57,352 bases of DNA from Coriobacteriia bacterium (GTDB taxonomy: Bacteria > Actinomycetota > Coriobacteriia > Anaerosomatales > SLCP01), in the NCBI GenBank assembly GCA_019429145.1, contig JAHYJI010000005.1:1-57352 (forward strand). Reading direction: 5' to 3'. Shown piece after piece: positions 7,053-57,352 of the stretch; positions within the stretch are counted from its first letter, which is position 1; the number at the start of each line of letters is the position of its first letter. The position numbers and the translations under genes are program-made. A model generated the notes under the pieces. That model did no database searches, had not been told where the DNA came from, and saw only the letters and a program-made list of their open reading frames with translations.

Positions 7053-7115
7053 CCTTCCGACCTGGATCGCCCGGTTCGCACGGCAGGCACGGCACCCGGA
7101 TCGTCAGGAGACTCG

Positions 7116-8303: not shown

Positions 8304-8315
8304 GGAGGAGTACGT

Positions 8316-9083: not shown

Positions 9084-10618
9084 GCGAGGCGCGCCTTCCG
9101 CTCTGCCTCATCGTCATGGATGGCTACGGTCTGGCCGAGCCGGGTCCGGCCAACGCGATCACCTCTGCGCGCACGCCCGAACTCGACGCTCTGTTCGAGA
9201 CCTATCCGCACACGCGTCTCTGCGCGTCAGGCGAGGCGGTCGGTCTGCCCGCGGGCCAGATGGGCAACTCGGAGGTCGGGCACCTCAACATCGGTGCCGG
9301 CCGCGTCGTCTACCAGGAGCTCACCCGCATACACAAGGCCATCGAGGACGGTTCGTTCTTCGCCAACGAAGTCTTAGATGGTGCCGTGGACGCGGCTGTG
9401 GCCAACGGGAAAGCCGTCCACTTCATGGGGCTGCTCTCCGACGGAGGCGTTCACAGTCACCGCGACCACCTCTATGCGCTCCTGCGTCTCGCGAAGCGCA
9501 GGGGAGCGACGCGCGTATTCGTGCACTGCTTCCTCGACGGTCGCGACGTGCCGCCCGACTCGGGGCTCCGCTTCATCGAGGAGCTCGAGACCTTTCTGGC
9601 GGAGGAGCAGGCCGGACACATCGCCAGCGTCACGGGCCGCTACTATGCGATGGACCGCGACAACCGCTGGGAGCGGGTCGAGAGAGCGTGGCGGGCCCTC
9701 GTACTCGGGGAGGGCGTCAACGCTCCGGGAGCCGTCCAGGCGGTGGCGCACTCCTACGCCGAGGGGGTGACCGATGAGTTCGTCGTTCCGGCGGTCGTCG
9801 TTGATGATGGCGTTCCTGTCGGCCCCGTGCAGGACGGCGACGCCGTGGTGTTCTTCAACTTCCGGCCCGACCGTGCCCGGGAGATCACCCGCGCGTTGGT
9901 CGATCCCGGGTTCGCCGGGTTCGAGCGGCCGGTGGCCCCGCAAACGCACTTCGTGTGCCTGACCGAGTACGACCCCTCGATTCCGGCGCCGGTCGCGTTT
10001 CCAAAGGACCTGCCGTGCTGCGTGTTGGCCGACGTGCTGTCCGAGGCGGGCCTGCGCCAGCTGCACATCGCGGAGACCGAGAAGTACGCGCACGTCACCT
10101 TCTTCCTGAACGGGGGGGCCGAGAAGCCCAAGGAGGGCGAGGAGCGGATACTGATCCCGAGCCCGAGGGTGGCCACCTACGATCTCAAGCCCGAGATGAG
10201 TGCGATCGAGGTGACCGACGAGCTCGTCGGCGCCATCGGGGCGGGCCGGGCCGACGTCTACATCGTGAACTACGCGAACTGCGACATGGTCGGGCACACG
10301 GGCATCTTCGATGCCGCCGTCACCGCCGTCGAAGCAGTGGACGGCTGTATAGGACGCGTCGTCCGGGCGGTCCGAGAACGTGGAGGCGTCGCCCTGGTGA
10401 CCGCCGACCACGGGAACGCAGAGCAGATGACCGAGTCGGACGGGGTCAGTCCGTTCACCGCCCATACCCCTGCGGATGTGCCACTGATCGTGGTAGACGA
10501 GCAGGTCGCCGCGTTGGCCGAGGGCGGGATCCTCGCCGATGTCGCGCCGACGGTCGTGGCTCTGTTGGGGATCGAGTCGCCGCCGGAGTGGACGGGACGA
10601 AGCCTCCTGCTATACTAA
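9080..10618 (+). CDS. gpmI: 2,3-bisphosphoglycerate-independent phosphoglycerate mutase
   Basis: GQMGNSEVGH, GRYYAMDRD, ETEKYAHVTFF, DMVGHTG, TADHGN. Confidence 0.97.
   Translation: MSEARLPLCLIVMDGYGLAEPGPANAITSARTPELDALFETYPHTRLCASGEAVGLPAGQMGNSEVGHLNIGAGRVVYQELTRIHKAIEDGSFFANEVLDGAVDAAVANGKAVHFMGLLSDGGVHSHRDHLYALLRLAKRRGATRVFVHCFLDGRDVPPDSGLRFIEELETFLAEEQAGHIASVTGRYYAMDRDNRWERVERAWRALVLGEGVNAPGAVQAVAHSYAEGVTDEFVVPAVVVDDGVPVGPVQDGDAVVFFNFRPDRAREITRALVDPGFAGFERPVAPQTHFVCLTEYDPSIPAPVAFPKDLPCCVLADVLSEAGLRQLHIAETEKYAHVTFFLNGGAEKPKEGEERILIPSPRVATYDLKPEMSAIEVTDELVGAIGAGRADVYIVNYANCDMVGHTGIFDAAVTAVEAVDGCIGRVVRAVRERGGVALVTADHGNAEQMTESDGVSPFTAHTPADVPLIVVDEQVAALAEGGILADVAPTVVALLGIESPPEWTGRSLLLY
10608..10616 (+). 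promoter_or_regulatory. Extended -10 promoter (TGcTATACT) for secG
   Basis: TGn-TATACT overlapping the gpmI 3' end, ~50 bp before secG. Confidence 0.45.
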
Positions 10619-10666
10619 AGGGCCGTGTGGCCGACCCGGCCCGGGATCACGTAAGGAGAATCGCTG

Positions 10667-10912
10667 GTGAACGTGTTTGTTGGCTTCCTTCTGCTGATAC
10701 ACGTGCTCGCGTCAGTCGGGCTCGTCGTACTCATCCTTCTGCACTCCGGCAAGGGGACGGGCGTCTCCTCGATGTTCTCGGGCATGATGTCACCGACCTC
10801 GACCGGTACCGGCATCATCGAGAAGAACCTCGACCGCTTCACCATCATCGCCGCGGGTACGTTTGCGGTGACCACACTGCTTCTCATGGTCACATACTCT
10901 CCCGGCGGTTAG
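10667..10912 (+). CDS. secG: Preprotein translocase subunit SecG
   Basis: ILLHSGKGTG...EKNLDRFT, two TM helices; position after the glycolytic genes; AAGGAG RBS. Confidence 0.92.
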   Translation: MNVFVGFLLLIHVLASVGLVVLILLHSGKGTGVSSMFSGMMSPTSTGTGIIEKNLDRFTIIAAGTFAVTTLLLMVTYSPGG

Positions 10913-10944
10913 CGACTGCGAGGAATCACATCTGCGCGTATCTG

Positions 10945-10977
10945 AGGGCGGGACGTACTCATGTACCCGCCCTTTTT
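10945..10977 (+). terminator. Rho-independent terminator after secG
   Basis: AGGGCGGG...CCCGCCCT stem followed by TTTT. Confidence 0.75.
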
Positions 10978-11172
10978 GCTGCGCATACGCCATTTCGCCT
11001 CGGGTCCGCGACACTTGCCATCGAGGGCGAACAGGTGGACACTTGATGCGTTGCCGCGTGCGGTTATGCGGCGTGCGCGACCACGGACGCTCCGGAAGAT
11101 GCGGGGAGGTCGCCCTCGTTGGTTCGGGGCTGTGGTCGATGCGACCGTTCGACGTTGGAAGGAGGCACTACG

Positions 11173-45104: not shown

Positions 45105-45110
45105 ACCACG

Positions 45111-46596
<1,486 letters not shown>

Positions 46597-46604
<8 letters not shown>

Positions 46605-47466
46605 CGCCGCCGAGAAGGCTCGCGTCTTCCTCGAGCTGGTCAAGTTCGAACACAGCATCTTCGCGCTTCCGTATGCGTACATCGGCGCACTCTACGGGGT
46701 GGGGGAGGGCTGGCCGAGCTGGCAGTCGCTGCTCTGGATCACGGTCGTCATGGTGGGCGCGCGGGCGTTCGCCTTCGTCGTGAACCGCGCGGCCGACAAG
46801 GAGATCGATGCACGCAACCCGCGCACGGCGGAGCGCGCCATCCCTGCCGGGCTGATCAAGGCGTGGGAGCTCTGGCTCTTCTCGGCCGTGATGCTCGCGG
46901 CCTACCTGTACGGAGTCTGGCAGCTCGATCCGATCGCGCGGCTACTGTGGCCGATCCCGCTCGCGGCGTTCGTCATCTACCCGTATACGAAACGCTTCAC
47001 CCCACTCTGCCACTACTGGCTCGGTCTGTGCCTCGGGCTCGCGCCTGTGGGCGGCTGGGTCGCGGTAGGAGGGCCTATCGGTGACCCCGCACCGTGGGTG
47101 CTCGGTGTGGCCGTCATGTTATGGACCGCCGGGTTCGACATCATCTACGCGACCCAGGACATCGAGTGCGATCGTCGCGATGGCGTGCATTCGATGCCGG
47201 CGGACTACGGTGTGGCAGCCGCCCTGCTTCAGACGCGTGTGGCGCACGCGGCGACCGTGCTCCTGCTCGCGGTGGGCGGGTTCCTCGCAGGTGCGGGCTG
47301 GCCGTACTTCGTTGGTGTCGCCATCGCGGCCGTGCAGCTCGGCTACGAGAACCTGATAATCGGGCCATCGGATCTCTCGCGCGTCAACGCGGCGTTCTTC
47401 ACGGTCAACGGCATCATCGCTATCGTGGTGTTCATGGGGGCGGTCGCCGACCGCCTGACAGCGTAG
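46597..47466 (+). CDS. ubiA: UbiA-like polyprenyltransferase (MqnP-type)
   Basis: KFEHSIFALP, NRAADKEIDARNPRT, GFDIIYATQD, VNAAFF. Confidence 0.9.
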
Positions 47467-47481
47467 GAAGAAAGGGGACCG

Positions 47482-48078
47482 ATGGGCCGCTACACCGTTG
47501 CGATCACTGGTGCGTCCGGCAGTGCGTACGGGATGCGGGTCGTAGAACGCCTGCTCGCCTCGGGTCACGAGGTGGCGCTCGTCATGACGCCCGCAGGTAC
47601 CGAGGTTGCCGCGTACGAGCTCGAGTTCGATCTCCCTGCCGAGGACTCGGCCAGAGCCCTCCTGCGCTTCCTGGAGCTGCCGAGTGACGCGCCCCTGCGC
47701 ATCGCATGCTGTGGCGACCTCTTCGATCCGCTCGCATCCGGATCTCACCGGACCGACGCGATGATCGTCGTGCCTGCCTCCATGGGGTTCTGTGCGAGCG
47801 TGGCGAACGGCCTCGCATCTAACCTGGCAGAGCGGGCGGCCGACGTGGCGCTCAAGGAGGGCCGGCCGCTTGTGATGGTGCCCCGAGAGACGCCGCTCTC
47901 CCTCGTTCACCTGCGTAACCTCACGACGCTTGCCGAGGCGGGTGCGATCATCGCGCCGGCGATGCCGGCCTTCTACCATCACCCGCAGACTCTCGATGAC
48001 CAGGTGAGTTTCGTCGTTGGCAAGGTGCTCGACGTCCTCGGGATCGAACACGATCTGTTTCCGCGGTGGGGAGCGTAG
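47482..48078 (+). CDS. ubiX: Flavin prenyltransferase UbiX
   Basis: ITGASG, ASGS, PASM, RAADVALKE, PRETP, PAFY. Confidence 0.95.
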   Translation: MGRYTVAITGASGSAYGMRVVERLLASGHEVALVMTPAGTEVAAYELEFDLPAEDSARALLRFLELPSDAPLRIACCGDLFDPLASGSHRTDAMIVVPASMGFCASVANGLASNLAERAADVALKEGRPLVMVPRETPLSLVHLRNLTTLAEAGAIIAPAMPAFYHHPQTLDDQVSFVVGKVLDVLGIEHDLFPRWGA

Positions 48079-48100
48079 GGGGGTCTTCCTCGGCCTCAGG

Positions 48101-48129
48101 TTGACGGACGTGCCACCTCGGCGGAGAAT
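48101..48129 (+). promoter_or_regulatory. Sigma70-type promoter of the small ORF
   Basis: TTGACG-17bp-GAGAAT. Confidence 0.6.
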
Positions 48130-48162
48130 GTGTGTTCGTAAGGGTCAGAACCACCGCACCGC

Positions 48163-48201
48163 AGCAGTAGTAGCAGTAGTAGTCGCAGTCACAGTCGCAG
48201 C
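48163..48201 (+). repeat. Triplet (AGY)n tract in a 5' UTR
   Basis: AGC AGT AGT AGC AGT AGT AGT cgc AGT cac AGT cgc AGC immediately before the GGAGG RBS. Confidence 0.8.
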
Positions 48202-48216
48202 ACGGAGGTAGCAGCC

Positions 48217-48369
48217 ATGACCCTGGCACAGGCGCGCAAGCGCTATCCGCTCGTGCCCGCCGAGATCGTGAAGTGGGCCGTCGATAACATCCCCGATCCG
48301 CGCGATGTCGAGCGCGGGCTGATGCGGCTCGAGAACTCCCGCCGCGTCGAGCTCAAGTACTCGGCATAG
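48217..48369 (+). CDS. Small 50-aa protein not in the ORF track (MTLAQARKRYPLVPAEIVKWAVDNIPDPRDVERGLMRLENSRRVELKYSA)
   Basis: GGAGG RBS at 48204-48208, host-like GC3 codon bias, upstream promoter and downstream hairpin. Confidence 0.75.
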   Translation: MTLAQARKRYPLVPAEIVKWAVDNIPDPRDVERGLMRLENSRRVELKYSA

Positions 48370-48380
48370 CAGACACACAA

Positions 48381-48408
48381 GAAGGGCCGCCCACCGGGAC
48401 GGCCCTTC
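48381..48408. terminator. Hairpin between the convergent small ORF and tRNA-Cys
   Basis: GAAGGGCCG...CGGCCCTTC 9-bp stem. Confidence 0.65.
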
Positions 48409-48416
48409 ATCGGTTC

Positions 48417-48490
48417 TGGAGGCGACGCCCGGATTCGAACCGGGGATAAGGGCTTTGCAGGCCCCTGCCTTGCCACTTGGCCACGTCGCC
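48417..48490 (-). tRNA. tRNA-Cys(GCA)
   Basis: Reverse complement GGCGACGTGGCCAAGTGG...CTGCAAA...GTTCGAATCCGGGCGTCGCCTCCA. Confidence 0.95.
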
Positions 48491-48582
48491 GTATGCGGCG
48501 CTGAGCTGCGCCTGTTATGAATCGAAGGCCGGCCCCGTGGGCCGCGTTGAAGCCTCCCGGACCGACCTTCGGATCGAATCGA

Positions 48583-48657
48583 TGGAGCGGACGAAGGGAT
48601 TCGAACCCTCGACCCCCACCTTGGCAAGGTGGTGTTCTACCACTGAACTACGTCCGC
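48583..48657 (-). tRNA. tRNA-Gly(GCC)
   Basis: Reverse complement GCGGACGTAGTTCAGTGG...TTGCCAA...GTTCGAATCCCTTCGTCCGCTCCA. Confidence 0.95.
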
Positions 48658-48668
48658 GCGCAAAGGGT

Positions 48669-48697
48669 AGTCTAGCAAGGGCACTACACCGTGGCAA
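48669..48697 (-). promoter_or_regulatory. Promoter of the tRNA-Gly/tRNA-Cys pair
   Basis: Minus strand TTGCCA-17bp-TAGACT. Confidence 0.65.
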
Positions 48698-48826
48698 GGA
48701 AGAATCCACGCTGGTTCTGATAGATGCCGAGGATATCGTGGTTCCTGGGCGTCCCAGCATTTTGGGGGTGGCGCGGACGGCTGGAGTTGGTACAATGTGC
48801 GTCGCTGCTCGATAGAGTGGCTGCAC

Positions 48827-48901
48827 GGGCGCTTAGCTCAGGGGGAGAGCACTTCCTTGACGCGGAAGGGGTCAGAGGTTCAAATCCTCTAGCGCCCACC
48901 A
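48827..48901 (+). tRNA. tRNA-Val(GAC); integration target
   Basis: GGGCGCTTAGCTCAG...CTTCC-TTGACGC-GGAAG...GTTCAAATCCTCTAGCGCCCACCA; extended -10 TGgTACAAT at 48788-48796. Confidence 0.95.
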
Positions 48902-48910
48902 TGGATGAAG

Positions 48911-48955
48911 AAACGCCCCTTCGGGATCTCTGCGGAGATATTCGAAGGGGCGTTT
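48911..48955. terminator. Bidirectional terminator between tRNA-Val and rep
   Basis: AAACGCCCCTTCG...CGAAGGGGCGTTT 13-bp perfect stem. Confidence 0.75.
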
Positions 48956-49863
48956 TAGCTGGCCCCGAGCGAGGCGAGCGCACCATAGAGGCGGCTGATG
49001 ATCCGACCTTCACTCTCGGCCCGGGCAGCGTGACGGATGCGCGGCTGGGGCTCAGAGGCCCCCCACAGCCCCGGCAGCACCTCCCAGCGCGGATCGAGCG
49101 GCCAGCGGCTCTTGTTGGCCCCTGACGGAACGCAGAGCTTGCACCACTCGACCCCATGGGCAAACAGCCCCGGCAGAATCTGAAAGGACTCACGGACCGT
49201 GTCCGCTGAGAGCTCTCTGAGCGCGTCGCGCCGGTACTGCACTTCGATGCGCCACACAGGAGCGTCCGGATCGTAGTGCTCCGCAGACTCCCACACCGTC
49301 GCATATGAGAGCTTCTTCTTGGCCTTGAGTTCAGCGTCCTTGCGGTAGATGCGAAAGACGGTATTGCGCGTGCCGAGCTTGTACGTGACCCCTTCGCCGT
49401 CTTTGTGGATGCTTCGGGCACTTGCCCGGCAGACGATGTTTTCGAAGTCACGGTCAGTGAACTCAAAGCCCTGGACATCGAGACACAGGTCCAGGCGCGA
49501 GAGGGTGTTTTCCCGATCCGCTCCAAGGGAGGCGGCAAGCTGTGCCGAACGCTCGTAGAGCTCCGTGTGGCCGTGTGTGGCAAGCGCTTGGGCGAGCAAG
49601 CGTACCGAGACCGGAGGGATACCGCTTGCGGCAACAGAGACCCGGAGGATGATGTCTGAGTCCTGTAGTACGAAGCGATACGTGCCGCTGCCCTTGGGAG
49701 TCACGAAGAACTCCTCACCGCCACCGTCGAAGGGCTGAGGACGGTCTAGAAGCTGTGCCCGGTCCTTGGCGGTCTGAAGGCGTGAGATCAGGCCATCGAC
49801 GAGCTCACCTTCAAAGGTCGCTTCCAGGGTATCCACACCGGCATAGAGGAGCCGAATACTCAC
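48955..49863 (-). CDS. Rep_trans-like replication initiation factor (rolling-circle nickase), possibly C-terminally truncated
   Basis: GVDTLE, SRLDLCLD, GVTYKLG, FRIYRKD and VWRIEVQ match the ordered Rep_trans motifs (RxDxxxD, GxTxxxG, RxYxK, WxRxE). Confidence 0.75.
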   Translation of the reverse strand: MSIRLLYAGVDTLEATFEGELVDGLISRLQTAKDRAQLLDRPQPFDGGGEEFFVTPKGSGTYRFVLQDSDIILRVSVAASGIPPVSVRLLAQALATHGHTELYERSAQLAASLGADRENTLSRLDLCLDVQGFEFTDRDFENIVCRASARSIHKDGEGVTYKLGTRNTVFRIYRKDAELKAKKKLSYATVWESAEHYDPDAPVWRIEVQYRRDALRELSADTVRESFQILPGLFAHGVEWCKLCVPSGANKSRWPLDPRWEVLPGLWGASEPQPRIRHAARAESEGRIISRLYGALASLGAS

Positions 49864-50069
49864 GACTTGTCCTCTTGGGTGTAATTAGAATCCCCCATGT
49901 TATAAGCGCTGGGGGATTCGAGCCCTGCGGGCTCCGGGGCGAGGAGTCCGTCAGCGATCAGATCGATGAGCAGCACCGCGAGGGCGCGGGCCTCGGCCGC
50001 CTCCAGGGCGCATCCGCGCCGCTGGAGCTCGGCGCGAAGCTCCGCGCCCACCTCGTGCTTGCTGCTCAT
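49860..50069 (-). CDS. Small hypothetical protein coupled to rep
   Basis: GGAGGTGA RBS; stop overlaps the rep GTG. Confidence 0.6.
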   Translation of the reverse strand: MSSKHEVGAELRAELQRRGCALEAAEARALAVLLIDLIADGLLAPEPAGLESPSAYNMGDSNYTQEDKS

Positions 50070-50123
50070 GTGATCTCACCTCCAAGACGGTCTCGTTCGG
50101 TCTTGGAGGGAGTATCTGTGTGG

Positions 50124-50864
50124 CTAGTCCGGTTTCGCGGACAGAGAATCGAGCACTTGTGTCCACTTATCGCGATATCGGCGGACAGCCCTGCCTACCG
50201 TGTGAGCCGCCTTGCGGACCTCTTCGGAGTAGTTTTCGGGCTCAGCCATAGCCTCGGGGAGTATCCCTGAGCGTAGATCGGCAAGCGCGATCTCGCGGTA
50301 GGAGCCGCGCTTCTCACCGAGGGCTTGGTATCTACGGAACCACTCAGCGTCGCGAAGCGCGTTCTCATGCTCGCCGATGTAATGCGCGAAAGTCCGGTCG
50401 CAGACACGCTGGAAGTCTTCGGTGATTGTGCCGGAGGTCAGCGGTGTCGCGATGGCTATGACTACCGGAAGCTCGAACTCGTCTTCCTCGTGAATCAGGG
50501 TCTGCACTCCGCCGGTGAGCATCGGCAGCATCGGGAACCCTTCGCCTCCGAGATCGGCGATGACTGCAGCGAGCATGTGGAGCGCAAAGTACTGCCGGAA
50601 GGCCGCACGCGCGTCGTCAGGAAGGGTGATGCCTTGCGCCGCGATGCCGTTGAGCAACTCGTCGAGATCGAGGCCGTCTTCTTTGAGGAGTTCCGCCACG
50701 CGGTCAGCGGCCCACTCGTGACTCTGGCCGGTAGCATTCATCTCGCGGACGACGGCCTGTGCCGCACGCCATGCAGGCGTGTCCTTGACGAGCTCGGTGA
50801 GCTCGAGCGCTGATTGTGTCCATGCGGGGAGGTCCATGAGAGCTAGGGTAGCACCCGCCAGCAT
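50124..50864 (-). CDS. Hypothetical protein, possible C-terminal HTH
   Basis: Co-oriented with rep; basic C-terminus (SYREIA...VRKAAHTVGRAVRRYR); start uncertain. Confidence 0.55.
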   Translation of the reverse strand: MLAGATLALMDLPAWTQSALELTELVKDTPAWRAAQAVVREMNATGQSHEWAADRVAELLKEDGLDLDELLNGIAAQGITLPDDARAAFRQYFALHMLAAVIADLGGEGFPMLPMLTGGVQTLIHEEDEFELPVVIAIATPLTSGTITEDFQRVCDRTFAHYIGEHENALRDAEWFRRYQALGEKRGSYREIALADLRSGILPEAMAEPENYSEEVRKAAHTVGRAVRRYRDKWTQVLDSLSAKPD

Positions 50865-50956
50865 CGCACCCGACTACAGGCAGTCGGCGCGAGCTATGCC
50901 CTTCGGGCTCGCGCCGGCCTGATCACCTGTGGACGGCTGCTAGAGGCCAGTCCTCA

Positions 50957-52126
50957 GTGATTGTCTATACTGCGGGAGACAGCGCACGATCCATCAGGAG
51001 GACGTTCTTGTCTGCTCGGTCCAACTCCGCTCTGCATCACGGACCCAAGGCTTCGCTTCGAGTGCTCGCATGGAGAGTGCGCGAAGCGATGGTCGGGGCT
51101 TGGAAGCGGCATGACCGTACCCCCCTATACTGCAAGGCGCTTGCTGGTGAGTCCGACTACAACATCTGCGTGAATTCGGACATGACCGTATCGTGCAATT
51201 GCCAGGACTTCGACGGAACGGGTCGCATAGGTGATCTGCGATCGCATTCCCTTGCGGAGATATTCTCGGGTGAGACGGTCCAGGCTTTCCAGGAGTCCCT
51301 GGCGTCAAGAGAATTCCCCACAAGCGTGTGCCACGCATGTCCTGAACTGGCCCCAATCCCAGCCCACGAACTTGCCAGAGGACCCGCGCTCGGTCGAGTC
51401 CCGCGTAGGGGCATCATGGTGGAAAACACCGCGATGTGTAACCTCAGATGTGGACTCTGTCGTCGCAAGGAACTGCTGGCCCTCCGTCGTCAGCCCTCGC
51501 TGAGCCTCGAAGACGTCGCGCACGTGTCGAGAATGCTGGCCGAGTACGGCATCGAGCAGGTCGCATTCTTCAATCTGGGCGAACCGTTTCTCTCTCCAGA
51601 CATTCTTTCTGAGATCCGTCTCCTGCGGCGGCACAATCCAGCTCTCCGTATCCTGACTTCTACAAATGGCCTCTTGCTGGACAACGAGGCGAAGATTGAG
51701 GCCGCCCTTCTCACGGACTACGTCTACTTCTCCATTGACGGAGTCTCGCAAGATACCCTGGTGCGCTATCAGGTAGGGGGCAGCTTTGACAGGCAATACG
51801 GCAATATGAAAGCACTTGTGGAGCAGAGGAACCATCGAAAGGCCACTGACCGTACAGTACGAGTCCCGCTTGTCGAGTGGAAATACGTGTTCTTTCGCTG
51901 GAATGACCACCTGGACCACCTGACGCAGGCATGGGAACTGGCCCAGGAGGCCGGAGTCGATAGACTGACCTTTCACCCCGGGTCCGTAACCGAAGAGGCC
52001 GACCTCTCCAAGCGATCCCTGACCGACCCGTTCTTCCTTTCAGCGGGAGCTCGACTCGTTGATGGCGGGATGAGTATCGACCTTACCGCCTACTCGGCAG
52101 GGGACCTTCGGTTGGAGAGCTTGTAG
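50957..52126 (+). CDS. Radical SAM protein with N-terminal SPASM/twitch-like domain
   Basis: YC...ICVNSDMTVSCNC...IGDL...SLAEIF...CHAC precedes ENTAMCNLRCGLC, LGEPF, STNGLLL, SIDG. Start uncertain (ATG 51089 is an alternative). Confidence 0.85.
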   Translation: MIVYTAGDSARSIRRTFLSARSNSALHHGPKASLRVLAWRVREAMVGAWKRHDRTPLYCKALAGESDYNICVNSDMTVSCNCQDFDGTGRIGDLRSHSLAEIFSGETVQAFQESLASREFPTSVCHACPELAPIPAHELARGPALGRVPRRGIMVENTAMCNLRCGLCRRKELLALRRQPSLSLEDVAHVSRMLAEYGIEQVAFFNLGEPFLSPDILSEIRLLRRHNPALRILTSTNGLLLDNEAKIEAALLTDYVYFSIDGVSQDTLVRYQVGGSFDRQYGNMKALVEQRNHRKATDRTVRVPLVEWKYVFFRWNDHLDHLTQAWELAQEAGVDRLTFHPGSVTEEADLSKRSLTDPFFLSAGARLVDGGMSIDLTAYSAGDLRLESL

Positions 52127-52175
52127 CCAGCCCTAGACCGTTCGAAGCGCGTCAACTAGCGCCCACCAATAGCAC

Positions 52176-52206
52176 AGGGCCCTGGACCATTGGTTCGGGG
52201 CCCTTT
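52176..52206. terminator. Hairpin just after the second att repeat (likely the ancestral tRNA-Val terminator)
   Basis: AGGGCCCTGGACC...GGTTCGGGGCCCT-TT. Confidence 0.65.
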
Positions 52207-52211
52207 CACAT

Positions 52212-53141
52212 TCAGATACCCCGCGCACCGTCGACGAACGCCGCGAGTCGGCTGACGGGAATGCGCTCCGGCACTGCCGAGCCGGGCGTTGCGATGAATG
52301 GATGCCCTCGCATCTCCTCGGCCATCCTTGCTCCCTGATTCCGCAGCCACTCCTCGTCGCGGTCGAGTAGGCGCATCGAGTCGAGGTTCCCGAAGACCAC
52401 GGTGTGGGGAGAGAGCTTCTCTCGTGCGGTGGCCAGAGGGGTATCCGCCGTGATCGACATCCCGCTGGCACCCGCACGACTGACGGCATCGAGAACGTGC
52501 GTGGCCGGGCCGCTCACGTGCACCACCGGGTCTGCGCCCGCAGCGCGGCTGCGCGCGAGCAGTTGCCTCATCGCCGGTAGCCACAGAGCGCAGAGTGACT
52601 GGGGACTGGCGAGTGCCGCCAGAGGTTCTCCTATCCACAGGAGTGCAGGATGTGTCTCGAGCGTGGCTTCGGTCACTGCCAACGTTGCCTCGAGTCCGCG
52701 CTCGAGATGCGAGTATGCCGCGCTGCTGCCCGCGAGCGATTCTACGAAGGGTTCGAGTCCGACGATGGTCGCAGCCGTGGTCATGGGCCCCCACACCTGG
52801 GCAACGACCGGCAAGGAACTGGCCGCGAGTTCGCTCATCAGCGACCGGTAGCGCTCGACCGTGCGGGAACCTGCCCCTTCGAGCGGATGAGCCGCTGCCT
52901 CAAGCGGAAGCATCGCACCGAGAACGAAGGGGGACTCCCACGACCGGGCATGGTGAAGTGCGTACTCCGGGTTCGTCCAGGTGGATGGACCGGGTCCCGC
53001 GAACGGCGTCGCCGGAGGGCCGCCGGTGACGAAGACCATCTGCTGCGGCGCTGCACGAACCATGTCCAGTAAGCCCGCCCGCGCTGCGGGCCGGTCCTGT
53101 GCGCTGAAGTGTGGCTGAACTCCGGCTTCCTGCTGTTCCAT
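52212..53141 (-). CDS. Uroporphyrinogen decarboxylase/MtaA-CmuA-fold protein, divergent
   Basis: WGPMTTA, IGEP, VVHVSG, VFGNLDS, FIATPGS.VP...AFV pattern of the URO-D superfamily. Confidence 0.7.
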   Translation of the reverse strand: MEQQEAGVQPHFSAQDRPAARAGLLDMVRAAPQQMVFVTGGPPATPFAGPGPSTWTNPEYALHHARSWESPFVLGAMLPLEAAAHPLEGAGSRTVERYRSLMSELAASSLPVVAQVWGPMTTAATIVGLEPFVESLAGSSAAYSHLERGLEATLAVTEATLETHPALLWIGEPLAALASPQSLCALWLPAMRQLLARSRAAGADPVVHVSGPATHVLDAVSRAGASGMSITADTPLATAREKLSPHTVVFGNLDSMRLLDRDEEWLRNQGARMAEEMRGHPFIATPGSAVPERIPVSRLAAFVDGARGI

Positions 53142-53248
53142 GGTTGGAGTGTACCCGTGGCACGTGCGCGAACCCCGTTACCATCATGGGTAGAAACCTG
53201 GTGAGGTCACACGCGCAGCGGCTCTGCGGAGACGAGGAAGGATGACAC

Positions 53249-53605
53249 ATGCTGTTGGCGAAGCGTTGGCGCATGCTCATCGTGTGCACGGTACTGATGG
53301 CACTCGTGGTCTTTGGTGCGGCGGCGTGCGGGTCGGACCAGCCGGACACGATAGCACCTGACACCCCCGGCACTGTCGAACCGGACGAACCCGATGGCGG
53401 CGAAGGAGCCGAGGTTCCCGCTACGGACGCTGATCGCACACTCGTCGAGGCGAAATGCTCGGGCTGCCATAATCTGGACCGGGTCTGGGCCGTCGATCAG
53501 GACCGTGCCGGGTGGGAGGCGACGGTCAGCAGGATGGAAGCGAACGGCCTGCAGGTCTCGGAGGACGAGCGCGCTGCGATCATCGAGTACCTGGCCAGCC
53601 AGTAG
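53249..53605 (+). CDS. Monoheme c-type cytochrome lipoprotein
   Basis: Lipobox AAAC, Pro/acidic linker, CSGCH, W..TVSRM axial Met, IIEYLA. Confidence 0.85.
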   Translation: MLLAKRWRMLIVCTVLMALVVFGAAACGSDQPDTIAPDTPGTVEPDEPDGGEGAEVPATDADRTLVEAKCSGCHNLDRVWAVDQDRAGWEATVSRMEANGLQVSEDERAAIIEYLASQ

Positions 53606-53614
53606 CCTGTCGGG

Positions 53615-54505
53615 TCAGGGCAGTATCAGGCGCGTCGCGCCGGGCAGTACCCGTGCTCTGAGCGGGGTTGTCGCCGGAAGGACTTCTCCGTCGTACTGGA
53701 GCGAGAGATCCGGCTCTGCCTCGATCACCACTTCCTGTGCCGAGTGGACCTCGAGGCCTGCGGTGTGGTCGGGATTGGCCACGAAGCGATCGAAGAACGC
53801 ACCCCAGACGGTCGGGATCAGCCCCGGAACGTTCTTGGTCCTGACGACGACGACCTCGAACAGGCCGTCCGCCGGGTCGCTCCGGTGCGTGAGCGCCAGG
53901 TCGAACTGCAACCGTGCGACGTTCATCACCAGCACGGCGATTCCCTCGGAGTGCACGGTTCTGCCGTCGATGTGCAGTGTGAAGTGCGACACGGTCGGTG
54001 TCAGATTCTGGAGCGCGCCGACGAAGTAGGCGGCAGCACCGAGAGTCGGCTTCAGCCGGTCGGCCGCTTCCATGATCGCCGCATCGAATCCGGCACCGGC
54101 AGCTACGATGAAGCCCTGTCGGTGCTCTTCATCCGGACCGTAGGTGAACTCGCCCAGATCGATGTCCCTCAGTTGTCCGTCGAGCGTGATGTGCGCGAGT
54201 GCCTCGGGGTCTGCGGGCATCCGCATATTGAGAGCGAACACGTTTGCCGTGCCCGCAGGATACGCAAGCACGGGAATGCCGGAGTTGGCGAGCGTGTAGC
54301 ATATCGCCGAGACCGTTCCGTCGCCGCCGGCGGCCACTACGCGGTCGTGCTCCGCCGCATCTCGCAGCGCGCCAGCGACATCGCCACTCTGGTGCAGATC
54401 CCGCACGGTGACCTCGGCGCCACGCTCCACGAGGGCGCGGACGTACTCGTAGACGCCGGCATCGCCCTGGCCGGACTTGAGATTGACGACCAGCAGGATT
54501 CGCAT
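53615..54505 (-). CDS. Diacylglycerol-kinase-family lipid kinase (YegS/DgkB-like)
   Basis: VN.KSG, AAGGDGT, PAGTAN, GAGFDA, YDGE. Confidence 0.9.
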   Translation of the reverse strand: MRILLVVNLKSGQGDAGVYEYVRALVERGAEVTVRDLHQSGDVAGALRDAAEHDRVVAAGGDGTVSAICYTLANSGIPVLAYPAGTANVFALNMRMPADPEALAHITLDGQLRDIDLGEFTYGPDEEHRQGFIVAAGAGFDAAIMEAADRLKPTLGAAAYFVGALQNLTPTVSHFTLHIDGRTVHSEGIAVLVMNVARLQFDLALTHRSDPADGLFEVVVVRTKNVPGLIPTVWGAFFDRFVANPDHTAGLEVHSAQEVVIEAEPDLSLQYDGEVLPATTPLRARVLPGATRLILP

Positions 54506-54618
54506 CTCAATCCTCCACCTTCAGTGCTACCGGTCAAGGTCTGTCCGGTGCGCATCATGTCACGCCTATACGGTATTGTGTGAACGGCGGATTTACCAGC
54601 ACCGACGGAAGGCGGCAC

Positions 54619-55803
54619 GTGTACGTCAGCGATAGCGAAGGGTTACAGGAGCTCGCCTCGCTCGTGAGGGGCGCGGAGTTCGTAGCGCTGGACACCGAGT
54701 TCATGCGAGAGCGTACGTACTATGCCCGTCTCTGTCTCGTGCAACTCGCCACCGACGACGTTGAGGCGATCGTCGACCCGCTGGCCGTTGAGGACTTGAC
54801 GCCGCTTCTGGACGTGCTGTCCGACACGCGTATGACGAAGGTCTTTCACGCGGGCCAGCAGGACCTGGAGATCATCTGCCGCATCGCCGGCACCGTGCCT
54901 GCGCCGGTCTTCGATACCCAGGTGGCCGCCACGCTCGCAGGCTTCCCGACCCAGGTGGGCTACGGTGCTCTGGTCAGCGAGATCGCCGGCGTGAAGCTCG
55001 ACAAGTCGGACACGTTCACCGATTGGTCCCGCAGGCCGCTCTCGTCGACACAGGTCGAGTACGCGCTCAACGATGTCAGGTATCTTCCCACCGTCTACCG
55101 GGAGCTTCGCTCGCGTCTGGAGGCCGAGGGACGGCTGTCATGGCTGGAGCCCGAGTTCGATCGCATGGTCGATCCGGCAACGTATGAGGTCGTTCCCGAG
55201 GAACTGTTCCGGCGCGTCAAGCGCATGTCCTCGCTGAAGGCGCGTCAACTCGGCGTCCTCATGAAGCTCACCGCATGGCGGGAGTATGAAGCACAGCGCC
55301 GTGACATCCCGCGCAAGTGGGTGCTCGGAGACGAGAGCCTGCTCGAGATAGCGCGCAGGTCACCGCAGGACCGGGAGGCACTTGCGTCCATCAGGGGTGT
55401 TGCTGACAAGCTCGCTAAAGGATCGTTCCCGGGTGTCCTGTCCGCGGTGGCCGAGGGCCTGGCGCTTTCACGTGAGGAGTTGCCGACACTCGAGCGCAAG
55501 CGGCGCCGTCCGCTCGATGTGGATGGCGCGGTAGACCTGATGGCCGCTCTGGTGCGGCTCCGGGCCAAAGAGCACGGGGTCGCTACTCCGCTGCTTGCCT
55601 CCCGCGGTGACCTCGAGCTGCTTGCAGGGGGCGAGCGTGACGACACGCCACTCCTGGAGGGGTGGCGCCGCTCGATCGTCGGCGATGAGCTCATCAGGAT
55701 GCTCGACGGGGAGCTTGCCCTCCGGCTCGCTGACGGTCGCGTGGTGGTCGACGAGTGCGGTACCACGGCCGAGTGTCCCGATTCCGGGGAGAGCAGTCCC
55801 TAA
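54619..55803 (+). CDS. rnd: Ribonuclease D
   Basis: ALDTEFMRERTYYARLCLVQ, HAGQQD, FDTQVAA, TDWSRRPL, YALNDV, HRDC domain; start could be 54580. Confidence 0.93.
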   Translation: MYVSDSEGLQELASLVRGAEFVALDTEFMRERTYYARLCLVQLATDDVEAIVDPLAVEDLTPLLDVLSDTRMTKVFHAGQQDLEIICRIAGTVPAPVFDTQVAATLAGFPTQVGYGALVSEIAGVKLDKSDTFTDWSRRPLSSTQVEYALNDVRYLPTVYRELRSRLEAEGRLSWLEPEFDRMVDPATYEVVPEELFRRVKRMSSLKARQLGVLMKLTAWREYEAQRRDIPRKWVLGDESLLEIARRSPQDREALASIRGVADKLAKGSFPGVLSAVAEGLALSREELPTLERKRRRPLDVDGAVDLMAALVRLRAKEHGVATPLLASRGDLELLAGGERDDTPLLEGWRRSIVGDELIRMLDGELALRLADGRVVVDECGTTAECPDSGESSP

Positions 55804-55811
55804 ACGAGCGC

Positions 55812-55827
55812 TGGCAAAGGGTTTGCA
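55812..55827 (+). promoter_or_regulatory. Sigma-54 -24/-12 promoter upstream of the YugP-like peptidase
   Basis: TGGCAAA-gggt-TTGCA, exact spacing, ~51 bp before the ATG. Confidence 0.7.
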
Positions 55828-55877
55828 CTCATTCAGCAACACGTTCCAATCTACGACCATGACAGACGGAGGATCAG

Positions 55878-56546
55878 ATGTTCGGTTCGTACTTGCCGAT
55901 TCTCATCATCGCGGTAGTCCTGGGGCTTGCGACTCAGGGCTTCGTCAACGCCTCGTACCGCCGCTACTCGCAGGTGGCCTTGGCGACAGGTAAGAGCGGT
56001 GCCGAGGTGGCTCGCTATATGCTCGACTCCGAGGGACTCGGTCACGTGGGCATCGAGATGGTGCCGGGTCACCTGACCGATCACTACGACCCGAAGCAGG
56101 ACGTCCTGCGCCTGTCCGAGGACGTGTATCGCGGCCGGACGGTTGCGGCAGCGGGAATCGCCGCCCACGAGGCGGGACACGCGGTCCAACACGCGCGCGG
56201 GTTCGTCTTCGCACGCGTGCGTGGAGCGCTCGTTCCGACGGCACAGCTCGGCTCGTCACTGGCATTCCCGCTGATACTCGGTGGGCTGTTCATCGGATTG
56301 TCGGGGCTCATCACGCTGGGTGTCATCATGTTCGCGGGTGCGGTGCTCTTCCAGATCGTGACCCTGCCGGTGGAGTTCGACGCGTCTCGTCGGGCAGTGG
56401 CCGCCCTCAGCATCGGCAACGCCCTTCCGGCCGAGCAGATGAGCGGCGCACGTACGGTGCTCACGGCCGCCGCACTGACCTATGTCGCGGCCACTCTCAT
56501 CGCGGTCCTGCAGCTGCTGTACTTCCTGGGTCTCTCGCGCCGCTAG
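55878..56546 (+). CDS. Membrane zinc metallopeptidase (YugP/Zn_peptidase_2-like)
   Basis: LTDHYDP, AAHEAGHAVQH (HExxH), TLPVEFDASRRA, AAALTYVA. Confidence 0.9.
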   Translation: MFGSYLPILIIAVVLGLATQGFVNASYRRYSQVALATGKSGAEVARYMLDSEGLGHVGIEMVPGHLTDHYDPKQDVLRLSEDVYRGRTVAAAGIAAHEAGHAVQHARGFVFARVRGALVPTAQLGSSLAFPLILGGLFIGLSGLITLGVIMFAGAVLFQIVTLPVEFDASRRAVAALSIGNALPAEQMSGARTVLTAAALTYVAATLIAVLQLLYFLGLSRR

Positions 56547-56610
56547 CGCCGGAGGTGTCAGACCGGTCGGGTACCATCGTGAGTAGCGGCAGCGGCTGAG
56601 AGGGGAGCGG

Positions 56611-57352
56611 GTGCCTGAGGAACGAGCGGTCAGCGTCAGCGAGGCGATCGCACGCGCAAAGCGCGCCCTGGAGGGCGTGAGACTCCGGGTCGTCGGGGAG
56701 GTCTCGGAGTTCGCCGACAAGCCGGGCTACGCCGCGGCCTACTTCACGGTGTCTGACGGTGCTGCAGCACTGCCGTGTCTGATGTGGCGTGACCAGTACG
56801 CGGCCTCGGGGGTAATGCTGCGCTGCGGCATGCTCGTCGAGATGGAGGGGTACTTCTCCGCCTACGCGGCCAAGGGCAGGATGCAGTTCATCGTCAGGTC
56901 GATCTCGCTGGCTGGCGAGGGTCGCTTGCGCCTGCAAGTTGCCGAGCTCGCCCGCAAGCTCGAGGCCGAGGGGTTGATGCGTCCGGAGCGCAAGCGCGCA
57001 CTTCCGGCCTATCCCGCCCGGATCGGGGTGGTCACCTCACCCCGGGGCAAGGCGGTGCACGACGTTCTGCGCACGCTACGCCGGCGCTACCCGCTTGCCG
57101 AGGTTCTCCTCGCCGGAGTCCCGGTAGAGGGCGCAGAAGCGCCCTCGGCGATCGTAGAGGGCCTCGAAGTCGTTGCAGACGCTCGCCCCGATGTTGTCCT
57201 GCTCGTGCGCGGAGGCGGCTCCTACGAGGACCTCATGCCCTTCAACGACGAGCGCGTCGCCCGGGCTATCGCTGCGTGCCCCGTGCCGGTAGTCACCGGA
57301 ATCGGGCACGAGCCCGATACGTCGATCGCCGACATGGTCGCAGACGTCAGGG
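56611..57352 (+). CDS. xseA: Exodeoxyribonuclease VII large subunit, 3'-partial (absent from the ORF track because it has no stop in the window)
   Basis: My translation from GTG 56611: MPEERAVSVSEA...VVGEVSEF...YFT; RIGVVTSPRGKAVHD, RGGGSYEDL..FNDE, VTGIGHEPD. Confidence 0.93.
   Translation, partial: MPEERAVSVSEAIARAKRALEGVRLRVVGEVSEFADKPGYAAAYFTVSDGAAALPCLMWRDQYAASGVMLRCGMLVEMEGYFSAYAAKGRMQFIVRSISLAGEGRLRLQVAELARKLEAEGLMRPERKRALPAYPARIGVVTSPRGKAVHDVLRTLRRRYPLAEVLLAGVPVEGAEAPSAIVEGLEVVADARPDVVLLVRGGGSYEDLMPFNDERVARAIAACPVPVVTGIGHEPDTSIADMVADVR

Follow-up and report, generated by a model that had tools for sequence, protein, structure and literature searches.

The window, by which we mean the whole 57,352-base stretch of DNA that was analysed, contains a 3.3-kb segment bounded by two copies of the 13 nt that end its tRNA-Val(GAC) gene. 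Within the segment lie three backbone genes (rep, a 69-aa ORF and an ORF named P0003) and a cargo gene oriented divergently from them. The features of the locus are collected in Table 1.

Table 1. Features at the tRNA-Val(GAC) locus, in window coordinates
Feature	Position	Strand	Basis
tRNA-Val(GAC), integration target, intact	48827..48901	+	ARAGORN; Rfam RF00005, 66.6 bits
attL core, 13-nt direct repeat, final 13 nt of the tRNA	48889..48901	+	
Left arm of the element (P' arm) with hairpin, stems at about 48910-48956	48902..48962		fold; relatives; tblastn
Putative deletion breakpoint, LSR tail joined to rep codon 301/302	48962..48963		blastn blocks
rep, C-terminally truncated, 302 aa	48955..49863	-	alignments; PF02486 below threshold; fold
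69-aa backbone ORF	49860..50069	-	homologues at the same position
P0003 backbone ORF, longest reading 246 aa	50124..50864	-	homologue in the G013 element
Predicted radical SAM cargo gene, longest ORF 389 aa	50957..52126	+	PF04055, PF13186
Right arm of the element (P arm), kept across the family	52133..52155		comparison of right ends
attR core, second 13-nt copy	52156..52168	+	
Native tRNA-Val hairpin/terminator, displaced by the insertion	52176..52204	+	fold; G003 empty site

The segment is a genuine foreign insertion in the 3' end of tRNA-Val. We observed exactly two copies of the repeat, CTAGCGCCCACCA, in the window, and their spacing of 3,267 bp confirmed the initial annotation, which had reported that the end of the tRNA gene recurs 3.27 kb downstream. 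The chance expectation for this repeat was 0.06, and none of 100 shuffles gave at least 2 matches. The empty site that the same annotation had proposed to seek in relatives was found in the same-genus genome G003, where window positions 47481-48901 and 52156-57352 aligned to adjacent stretches. The left and right flank alignments overlapped exactly on the 13-nt core, the tRNA-Val(GAC) gene was identical to that of the window, and the native hairpin came directly after it. Two features expected of an integrative element of a large serine recombinase (LSR) were thereby present: short direct repeats at the borders, and a relative with the exact site unoccupied. The G+C fraction was about 0.56 to 0.65 inside the insertion versus about 0.66 to 0.68 outside it.

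The initial annotation had described a terminator-like hairpin after each repeat copy. Indeed, both regions gave strong folds on the + strand (-34.3 kcal/mol and z -5.8 for 48902-48962; -25.2 kcal/mol and z -5.1 for 52169-52215), but neither hairpin qualified under a strict terminator pattern, for which the scanner returned no site in 48700-52400. The left arm provides tRNA-Val with a replacement terminator and also forms the 3' end of a former serine-recombinase ORF. Nearly identical left-arm sequence follows tRNA-Val in the elements of the relatives G008 and G013, and those of G018 and G025 have unlike sequence with a similar fold at this position. At the other end, the motif CCGTTCGAAGCGCGTCAA, which immediately precedes the core, has near-identical counterparts where the elements of G008, G013 and G006 end on the right. 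Both att arms are thus retained in the window copy; the left arm occurs only once in the window's own assembly.

Homologues of Rep were present in five of the 40 relatives searched (G008, G018, G013, G025 and G006), four of which were assessable, rep lying at a contig end in G006. In these four the elements showed, in order, a P0003-like gene, a 68-69-aa ORF, rep, an LSR gene, a hairpin and tRNA-Val, the 68-69-aa ORF being seen in 3/4 elements with enough contig. In all four, an ORF of 488-536 aa with the PF00239, PF07508 and PF13408 domains was located between rep and tRNA-Val on the strand of rep, and in three of them repeats of the tRNA 3' end recurred 6.2-7.1 kb away. The complete G008 element, of 6.2 kb, contains only the LSR gene, rep, the 69-aa ORF, a 313-aa ORF without family matches and a type IV restriction enzyme gene. 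In a scan of public genomes, an LSR adjoined rep at 47 of 53 loci; of the remaining six, one lacked contig room and five had none, two of these five carrying a tyrosine integrase beside rep. An LSR was paired with a tRNA gene at 34/53 loci, and an Acidimicrobiia branch of the family was found at tRNA-Leu(GAG). Element sizes in the family ranged from 4.6 to 11 kb, and no recognised transfer genes were seen in the members examined. The initial annotation had labelled the segment a minimal integrase-less element, either satellite-like or decayed, while holding that an integrase always present in homologues would make it a simple remnant and that homologous elements should be checked for one. Since homologues nearly always bear a recombinase next to rep, the refuting observation named there has essentially been made.

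We then compared the window copy with its relatives' elements, with which it is otherwise collinear. Window positions 48825-48962 aligned by blastn to L033 8307-8444, and positions 48962-50107 to L033 9974-11119. Relative to the G008 element, 1,529 bp are missing (with an ambiguity of 1 nt), comprising LSR codons 1-461 and the last 48 codons of rep (302-349). By tblastn, LSR residues 462-503 matched window positions 48961-48836, across the hairpin and the antisense strand of the tRNA; this remnant corresponds to the terminal 42 codons of the LSR, 22 of which are antisense tRNA. The frame of rep ends one codon past the breakpoint, in agreement with the earlier suggestion that a rep gene stopping at the terminator beside attL reflects decay. 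Similarly, the absence of a recombinase gene from the element held, except that an LSR tail remains as sequence. No near-identical intact sibling of the window copy was recovered, so that the deletion is inferred from collinearity with diverged relatives and not from a before-and-after pair.

In further support of the deletion, contigs from other metagenomes (X2 record 11 and X6 record 29) extend beyond 48962 into dissimilar sequence on both sides, and a loose end among them resembles the intact 3' region of rep in G008. Among public contigs of related elements, breaks fall at 48901 and 48962, marking these positions as branch points of the assembly graph, and the window comes from a metagenome-assembled genome (MAG) of 143 contigs. 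These breaks and the fragmented genome would suit an intact element in the cells whose LSR region was collapsed or skipped during assembly or binning. We nevertheless consider such an artefact extremely unlikely: the junction lies in unique sequence within a 57-kb contig, only 1 nt is common to its two sides, leaving the assembler no repeat to collapse across, and two further genomes (G027 and G002) contain independent remnants whose breakpoints differ.

Tyrosine integrases are the usual assumption for tRNA sites. At this locus, the missing recombinase is an LSR, not a tyrosine integrase. A full LSR, with its resolvase, recombinase and zinc-ribbon domains, is not encoded in the window, and none of the insertion genes matched recombinase, capsid or conjugation families in Pfam, NCBIfam, PHROGs or PADLOC. 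A phage satellite of the PICI type, which would have an integrase of its own and genes to hijack the packaging of a helper, was likewise rejected, as no integrase, capsid, terminase or packaging family was found in Pfam or PHROGs. The search of the genome for a tRNA-Val-targeting integrase, which the initial annotation had advised, returned no serine recombinase: PF00239 had no match in the window's own assembly (98.5% complete), the control matching in 12 of 14 genomes, and a protein search with the LSR recovered only tRNA-antisense tails. The suggested borrowing of an integrase in trans thus gained no support from a helper in this assembly. Mobile elements are often missed in MAG assembly or binning, so failure to find a serine recombinase among these 143 contigs does not imply that the cells lack one.

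The Rep protein of the window has 302 aa, versus 337-349 aa at the compared loci of relatives. Among 19 database homologues, 16 have 349-353 aa, the window protein being one of the three shorter ones; its closest homologue is 62% identical, and it aligns to residues 1-301 of a 349-residue homologue. The Rep_trans family PF02486, to which the gene had been likened, was matched at only 21.5 bits (E 1.9e-4), below the gathering score of 29.6, as was the full-length G008 protein (21.6 bits), and only 5/36 family members matched at E<=0.01. Fold and profile evidence supported the likeness. An AF2 model of the G008 Rep, which is 60% identical to the window protein, had a pLDDT of 90.3 and a pTM of 0.83, and all six Foldseek hits in the PDB at E<=0.001 were Rep_trans initiators (4cij chains A-D, 4cwe and 4cwc), the best with E 2.8e-10, probability 1.00 and a TM score of 0.58 by target. 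The family profile aligned with 4cij at E 0.0059. By way of this homologue's model, the window Rep is predicted to have the Rep_trans fold, and to be like a rolling-circle initiator or a relaxase.

The family Rep thus resembles RepSTK1 and RepDE (4cij, 4cwc, 4cwe) in fold and in its aligned R-x-Y-x-K, R-x-E and RWP-x(4)-W motifs. Tyrosine Y173 (in RIYRK) is invariant in 36 family sequences and aligned with RFYEK of 4cij, whose tyrosine we take to be the catalytic residue of the solved Reps. Unlike RepSTK1 and RepDE, to which its identity is 14-16%, the family Rep is encoded on an integrated element, in an operon with a recombinase, and has an additional C-terminal three-helix bundle (residues 277-345 of the G008 protein), two helices of which are missing from the window Rep. 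No origin (dso or oriT) and no coupling protein were identified for the element. In public data the family Rep is annotated as hypothetical and carries no Pfam domain.

Rep also matched phrog_1159 (E 3.3e-11), and the 11.3-kb Synechococcus inovirus Yong-M4-251 encodes a homologue (23% identity, E 7e-8) annotated as its replication initiator, whose gene is again directly followed by an integrase gene. A filamentous phage with a serine recombinase integrating into a tRNA is mentioned in a passage of PMC3218068. The segment could on these grounds be the remnant of an integrated filamentous phage or other virus and not of a plasmid-like element. However, no coat or morphogenesis family was matched in any ORF tested, and the complete G008 element holds only the genes listed above; we regard a viral origin as almost negligible.

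Upstream of rep, the TGA stop of the 69-aa ORF overlaps the GTG start of rep (GTGA), which suggests that the two are translationally coupled. In G008, G013 and G006, the corresponding position is occupied by ORFs of 67-69 aa that share 75-86% identity with the window's 69-aa ORF, and the 68-aa counterpart in G018 is more distant. P0003 shares 76% identity with its positional counterpart in the G013 element; a search of 5.8 billion proteins returned only three homologues, all beginning at M10, and the start is likely at this residue (50837), giving 237 aa. Neither ORF had a match in Pfam, NCBIfam, PHROGs or PADLOC. The AF2 model of P0003 (pLDDT 50) was unusable, and its earlier description as a possible DNA-binding protein could not be confirmed.

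The cargo gene matched PF04055 (E 3.9e-15, 56.9 bits versus a cut-off of 29.5) and, N-terminal to this radical SAM core, PF13186 (residues 71-129, 24.7 bits versus 21.5). With its CX3CX2C cluster motif (CNLRCGLC), the product is predicted to be a radical SAM enzyme whose Cys-rich N-terminal domain is SPASM/twitch-like. The public gene call, P0005, has 349 aa and would begin at 51077. No NCBIfam model reached its cut-off, the best being TIGR04317 (69.6 versus 380). We considered and rejected a prokaryotic viperin: the PADLOC pVip matches span just the generic core (residues 158-270, E 9e-9), and the NCBIfam viperin model scored 26.5 bits versus a cut-off of 180.

Taken together, the segment is very probably a CIME-like deletion remnant of a tRNA-targeting element with an LSR, a Rep_trans-like protein and radical SAM cargo. 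In the parent family, a fixed backbone operon runs from the P0003-like gene through the 69-aa ORF and rep to an LSR gene that continues through the hairpin into the tRNA 3' end. The LSR, as the presumed integrase for the tRNA-Val site, would have inserted a circular element of about 4.8 kb through an 11-13-nt core common to the tRNA-Val 3' end; the left arm would thereby have given the tRNA its new terminator hairpin and pushed the native one to attR. Rep may have nicked and replicated, or mobilised, the excised circle. A single internal deletion would then have taken the LSR and rep codons named above and left the rep frame running into a stop codon at the hairpin edge. The remnant, consisting of the tRNA, both att arms, the three backbone genes and the cargo, is presumably now immobile and kept passively or because the cargo is useful. 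Its own integrase gene having been lost by internal deletion, the segment is a decayed island of the ordinary kind, rather than a new integrase-free element type; of the two alternatives offered in the initial annotation, the evidence favours the decayed island and not the satellite that borrows an integrase. Further decay stages are found among kin, namely a radical-SAM-only remnant at tRNA-Ala in G027 and a hairpin-only scar in G002.

The three retained backbone ORFs are uninterrupted. Open backbone ORFs and intact-looking att arms are also expected of an element that can still be mobilised.

A functional non-autonomous element, that is, a satellite or cis-mobilisable derivative still moved at attL and attR by the LSR and directionality factor of an incoming sibling, would keep its backbone genes for replication or regulation. 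The open ORFs, the close match of the att arms to the G008 and G013 elements and the presence of LSR-bearing siblings in the same bacterial family as the host agree with this, as do tandem arrays with internal att-like junctions in G013, G025, G027 and L041; in streptococci, according to passages of PMC5704250, CIME mobilisation takes place within arrays of this kind. Against it, the own genome yielded neither an LSR nor a sibling element, the architecture occurred once among 41 Rep-searched genomes and was absent from all 53 public rep loci, two of the three C-terminal helices of Rep are gone, and the LSR-less copies in G027 and G002 have other breakpoints, as random decay predicts. We consider a mobilisable derivative very unlikely.

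The deletion remnant is CIME-like in the terms defined in passages of PMC5704250, having lost its integration genes while still flanked by attL and attR at the target gene's 3' end; related loci also show tandem accretion with internal att-like junctions. Unlike streptococcal CIMEs as described there, its parent is not a demonstrated ICE or IME, and its host is an uncultured Coriobacteriia MAG. The parent resembles the streptococcal IMEs with a recombinase and Rep_trans/MobT of the same passages in its small size and in combining a Rep_trans-type protein with a recombination module and variable cargo; there, Rep_trans proteins can serve both excised-circle replication and relaxase function. 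It differs in that its Rep is too diverged for Pfam and that a tRNA 3' end is targeted through an LSR.

Actinomycetota hosts, integration at tRNA 3' ends and the combination of replication and recombinase genes are shared with the AICEs portrayed in passages of PMC3218068, which include a Mycobacterium group whose serine recombinases use a tRNA-Leu gene, comparable to the Acidimicrobiia branch of the present family. The same passages of this 2011 survey report no AICEs in Coriobacteridae or Acidimicrobidae. An AICE was rejected, since neither the window element nor the large ORFs tested of the G008 and G025 elements showed an FtsK/TraB-like translocase. Prochlorococcus tycheposons, in the portions of bioRxiv 10.1101/2020.12.28.424599 concerned, are likewise small tRNA-integrating cargo elements with tandem copies, partial tRNAs and degenerate remnants by the tRNA; they differ in replication genes and hosts, no homology is shown, and their recombinases are mostly of the tyrosine type (474/501).

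For annotation, a decayed integrative element is the appropriate reading of this locus, rather than a new integrase-independent mobility mechanism. It offers a clean example of how tRNA-adjacent islands form, four stages being seen among kin: the unoccupied site, the intact element, the remnant that keeps cargo and backbone, and the scar reduced to a hairpin. The parent family looks unnamed in the sources searched and may merit separate description. More speculatively, and this is on balance unlikely, the remnant may point to an undescribed family of very small integrative replicons (about 4.6-11 kb) in Actinomycetota, in the boldest form with LSR-less derivatives whose intact att arms are still moved in trans by siblings. 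Its backbone may be a Pfam-invisible Rep_trans-fold initiator translationally coupled to an LSR that crosses the att core into antisense tRNA; its targets may be tRNA-Val in Coriobacteriia and tRNA-Leu(GAG) in Acidimicrobiia, and its cargo, in the few elements examined, restriction-type and other single genes. If derivatives are moved in trans, the family would have autonomous and hitch-hiking members seeding tRNA-adjacent islands. Serine-recombinase integration at tRNA genes is called rare in a passage of PMC3218068, in contrast to the frequent LSR-tRNA pairing in our public scan. With their short, well-defined att sites, the LSRs of this family could interest collectors of integrase tools.

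The final 13 nt of tRNA-Val(GAC), CTAGCGCCCACCA, occur in exactly two copies in the window, at 48889-48901 (attL) and 52156-52168 (attR), a repeat for which 0.06 occurrences were expected by chance and for which none of 100 shuffled sequences gave two matches. This confirmed the duplication of the tRNA 3' end described in the initial annotation, which had also suggested looking for the empty site in relatives. Such a site was present in the same-genus genome G003, in which window positions 47481-48901 and 52156-57352 align (~92% identity) to adjoining stretches, the two flank alignments overlapping by exactly the 13-nt core. Directly 3' of the tRNA, the empty site carries the hairpin found at 52176-52204 in the window. 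Given this arrangement, the hairpin at attR is native to tRNA-Val and the one at attL was brought by the element, which is a site-specific insertion. The G+C content is 0.56-0.65 within the element, compared to ~0.66-0.68 in the flanks.

The terminator-like hairpins reported after each copy of the core proved to be strong folds on the plus strand (attL side, 48902-48962, -34.3 kcal/mol, z -5.8; attR side, 52169-52215, -25.2 kcal/mol, z -5.1), but the strict T-run terminator pattern applies to neither of them, and a terminator scan found it nowhere in the region. A consensus scan of the same region returned neither a sigma-70-like promoter nor a canonical terminator. In agreement with the initial annotation, the four element ORFs had no match to recombinase, capsid or conjugation families in Pfam, NCBIfam, PHROGs or PADLOC. 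We also observed an exact 13-nt direct repeat, TGCGGAGATATTC, in the attL hairpin loop (48931-48943) and inside the radical SAM gene (51253-51265), possibly by chance, with ~0.1 such pairs estimated for 3.7 kb.

Features of the element in the window and large serine recombinase (LSR) ORFs in the loci of relatives
Feature	Sequence	Positions	Strand	Remark
tRNA-Val(GAC)	window	48827-48901	+	target gene of the insertion
rep-like	window	48955-49863	-	302 aa
69-aa ORF	window	49860-50069	-	TGA stop overlaps the rep GTG start
P0003	window	50124-50864	-	246 aa
radical SAM gene	window	50957-52126	+	cargo
LSR ORF	L033	8315-9826	-	open through left-arm hairpin and att core into antisense tRNA
LSR ORF	L034	4630-6240	-	open through left-arm hairpin and att core into antisense tRNA
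LSR ORF	L035	5751-7277	+	open through left-arm hairpin and att core into antisense tRNA
LSR ORF	L036	8355-9821	-	open through left-arm hairpin and att core into antisense tRNA

Among the 40 relatives searched, five encode a homologue of the Rep protein; the three same-genus genomes gave none. In one of these five loci (G006), rep lies at the end of its contig; the other four are all adjoined by tRNA-Val, with anticodon TAC in G008, CAC in G018 and G013 and GAC in G025. Between rep and the tRNA, all four encode on the rep strand an ORF of 488-536 aa with Resolvase, Recombinase and Zn_ribbon_recom domains, whose start in G008 has one base in common with the rep stop codon. In G008, G013 and G025, a repeat of the tRNA 3' end lies 6.2-7.1 kb downstream. 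Since the LSR ORFs run into the antisense tRNA, their last ~10-36 codons are host encoded when these four intact relatives are integrated, and the LSR C-terminus should, as read from these frames, differ in the excised form. The cargo varies by element: a type IV Mrr-like restriction enzyme in G008, a BglII-like endonuclease and an MT-A70 methylase in G025, and a SAP-domain protein in G006. The insertion belongs to this LSR-carrying family.

Comparison with G008 indicated what the window copy has lost. The window Rep aligns to residues 1-301 of the 349-aa G008 Rep and ends one codon later, and window positions 48961 to 48836 are 74% identical (E 4.6e-14) to residues 462-503 of the G008 recombinase ORF. 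At the DNA level, 48825-48962 corresponds to 8307-8444 and 48962-50107 to 9974-11119 of the G008 locus, L033; the part lost from the window copy is equivalent to 1,529 bp, made up of recombinase codons 1-461 and rep codons 302-349, and the two sides of the junction have only one base in common. The left arm (TGGATGA, hairpin, GCTGG) is nearly the same in the window, G008 and G013, as is the right arm immediately to the left of the attR core, so both att sites are preserved, and these arms belong to the LSR family. The insertion is thus very probably a small serine-recombinase/Rep_trans-like integrative element decayed by internal deletion, and such a remnant fits the CIME definition in PMC5704250. 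Of the two origins offered by the initial annotation, a decayed island or a satellite borrowing an integrase in trans, the 1,529-bp gap in the G008 alignment favors decay, and the satellite is unlikely.

Two contigs from other metagenomes (X2 record 11 and X6 record 29) agree with the window as far as 48962 and diverge from it beyond that point, on either side of the breakpoint, and the loose end of the X6 record resembles the intact G008 rep 3' region; as these records are contigs, the support that they give is weak. No public sequencing run held at least half of the sampled words (best 0.23, all contigs). That the junction is an artefact of assembly we regard as very improbable.

We then considered whether the remnant could still be moved in trans. 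In its own assembly (98.5% complete, 143 contigs), the Resolvase family had no match, while the control was found in 12 of 14 genomes. The matches of the G008 recombinase were all short and confined to its C-terminal tail, and outside the window they cover solely residues encoded by antisense tRNA. A further copy of the left arm was not detected in the assembly. Because a MAG can miss mobile DNA, the serine recombinase is described as not found rather than absent. The search for an integrase elsewhere in the genome, also suggested initially, did return five tyrosine recombinase matches on other contigs but no serine recombinase. With both att sites in place, continued mobility in trans is conceivable, but we consider it doubtful.

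The assignment of the rep gene as Rep_trans-like was upheld at the level of structure but not by Pfam. In the suggested HMM test with PF02486, the window Rep scored 21.5 bits, below the threshold of 29.6, and only 5 of 36 family members matched Rep_trans at E<=0.01. A profile of these 36 members had a single match among PDB sequences, the Geobacillus Rep structure 4cij (E 0.0059), with which the RxYxK, RxE and RWPxxxxW motifs align. Kelch-repeat PDB matches of a 6-sequence Rep profile were spurious, arising via a YDPxxDxW motif, and were not recovered with the 36-sequence profile. The AF2 model of the G008 Rep (pLDDT 90.3, pTM 0.83) gave six Foldseek matches at E<=0.001, all to Rep_trans rolling-circle initiators (4cij, 4cwe, 4cwc), the best with E 2.8e-10 and a TM score of 0.58 by target. 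This model ends in three C-terminal helices (277-302, 308-326 and 330-345), the last two of which are missing from the window Rep; the invariant residues are retained, since all precede residue 276. Origin specificity in the pT181 family resides close to the C-terminus.

A search of 5.8 billion proteins returned 19 Rep homologues, none with a precomputed Pfam domain and the named ones all hypothetical. Sixteen are 349-353 aa long; the three short ones are the window's own protein with 302 aa, another with 328 aa and a 280-aa fragment from a contig end. Distant homologues annotated as replication initiators are encoded in Bacillus plasmids, with an HTH gene and then an integrase gene after rep, and in a Synechococcus inovirus, where an integrase gene follows rep. 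Examples are L105 (NZ_CP085507.1, a Bacillus cereus plasmid), in which the HTH gene is small, and L106 (OM868077.1, the inovirus), in which the integrase gene comes directly after rep. The order of rep and then recombinase recurs across unrelated mobile element types. A filamentous-phage origin of the insertion, which the inovirus homologue might bring to mind, is extremely improbable, no capsid family having been matched by the element ORFs.

Scanning public data, one genome per species, with a 4-sequence Rep alignment as the query yielded 53 loci encoding a Rep relative, and in 47 of them a serine-recombinase match starts just downstream of rep. The contig left no room for one in a further locus, and five had no serine-recombinase match. 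Pfam was applied to three of these five (L042, L077 and L080, the others being L079 and L088): L042 and L080 have a tyrosine integrase beside rep, and neither of the two ORFs examined in L077 gave a match. An integrase in homologous elements, the presence of which the initial annotation had proposed to check, was thus found as an LSR in 4/4 assessable relatives and 47/53 public loci, and as a tyrosine integrase in L042 and L080. Among the 47, the tRNA within 3 kb on the opposite strand is tRNA-Leu(GAG) in 31 and tRNA-Val in 3, with none detected in 13; most of these loci are from Acidimicrobiia MAGs, which are kin rather than independent samples. The 31 tRNA-Leu(GAG) loci, all within L044-L091, share the order rep, serine recombinase, tRNA (opposite strand). 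Judging by repeats of the tRNA-Leu 3' end, 17 of them would measure 4.6-11 kb, and an 18th (L086) has its repeat only 1.1 kb away; some of these 11-nt matches may be due to chance. Several reps or recombinases in L044-L091 are split into pieces, which may reflect decay or sequencing error.

An ORF of 67-69 aa lies at the same place upstream of rep in four of the relatives' loci, and the window 69-aa ORF is 75-86% identical to its counterparts in G008, G013 and G006. In relatives it is preceded by an ORF of 237-428 aa that occurs in distantly related variants. P0003 and the G013 variant (L035 3759-4472) share 76% identity, whereas the Reps of the window and G013 are only 34% identical, so modules have been exchanged. 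Likewise, G008 and G013 have recombinases with 82% identity and Reps with 31%, and the backbones are mosaic. A protein search located a 93%-identical P0003 homologue on a 45-kb contig, and metagenome scans using P0003 and its alignment as queries yielded no confirmed locus. The AF2 model of P0003 had a pLDDT of 50.1, and a structure atlas look-up gave only unnamed clusters with TM scores of <=0.32.

The cargo protein has a CX3CX2C motif and a PF04055 core, preceded N-terminally by a SPASM-like Cys-rich domain; it reached no NCBIfam model at the cut-off, and its structure-atlas neighbours are generic radical SAM/SPASM clusters. A role in defence was not supported, the viperin/pVip matches in PADLOC covering the generic core alone. 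Homologues numbered 464 at E<=0.001 among 8,000 scored candidates, and the gene is patchy within the order (8 of 146 genomes at E<=1e-10). The closest copy (80% identity) is in G027, at L101 (G027:C74) 6910-8500. On one side of it lies tRNA-Ala(TGC) with the family left-arm hairpin, and on the other a junction of right arm, tRNA-Val-type core and second left-arm hairpin; neither rep nor recombinase was detected there. This is a second remnant, broken at different points and at a different tRNA, and it resembles what is left of a tandem array. In the same-genus genome G002, an element-type hairpin stands directly 3' of tRNA-Val(GAC) (L038, G002:C24, 10172-10300), followed by ~60 nt and a URO-D-like gene, with no second core or native hairpin at this locus, which is a hairpin-only scar of a former element. 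Taken with the empty site and the intact elements, these remnants give four states in kin: empty, intact, backbone-plus-cargo remnant and scar.

Signs of tandem accretion were seen at three other loci. In G013 (L035, G013:C37), 922 bp separate two attR-like sites; the left-arm hairpin of G025 recurs at the right end (L036, G025:C2, 15121-15192); and in L041 (1093-1209 and 5757-7211) the rep-LSR-tRNA-Val unit is preceded upstream by another serine-recombinase gene and, separately, a fragment of a recombinase tail.

A literature search for elements combining Rep_trans and a serine recombinase at tRNA-Val or in these classes turned up no paper, supplementary tables, which may list related elements, being outside its coverage. 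PMC3218068 terms serine-recombinase integration into tRNA genes rare and reports no AICEs in Coriobacteridae or Acidimicrobidae. Tycheposons, as outlined in bioRxiv 10.1101/2020.12.28.424599, show an analogous pile-up of remnants at tRNA genes, and the minimal hitchers of the iOriT preprint are different in kind.

Finally, a second presence/absence difference was observed beside the tRNA cluster. The G003 locus, collinear in other respects, lacks a 2.4-kb stretch (45108-47480) with genes for a UbiD-family decarboxylase (45111-46604) and a UbiA prenyltransferase (46597-47466); the UbiX-like flavoprotein gene next to the UbiA gene (47482-48078) is common to both.
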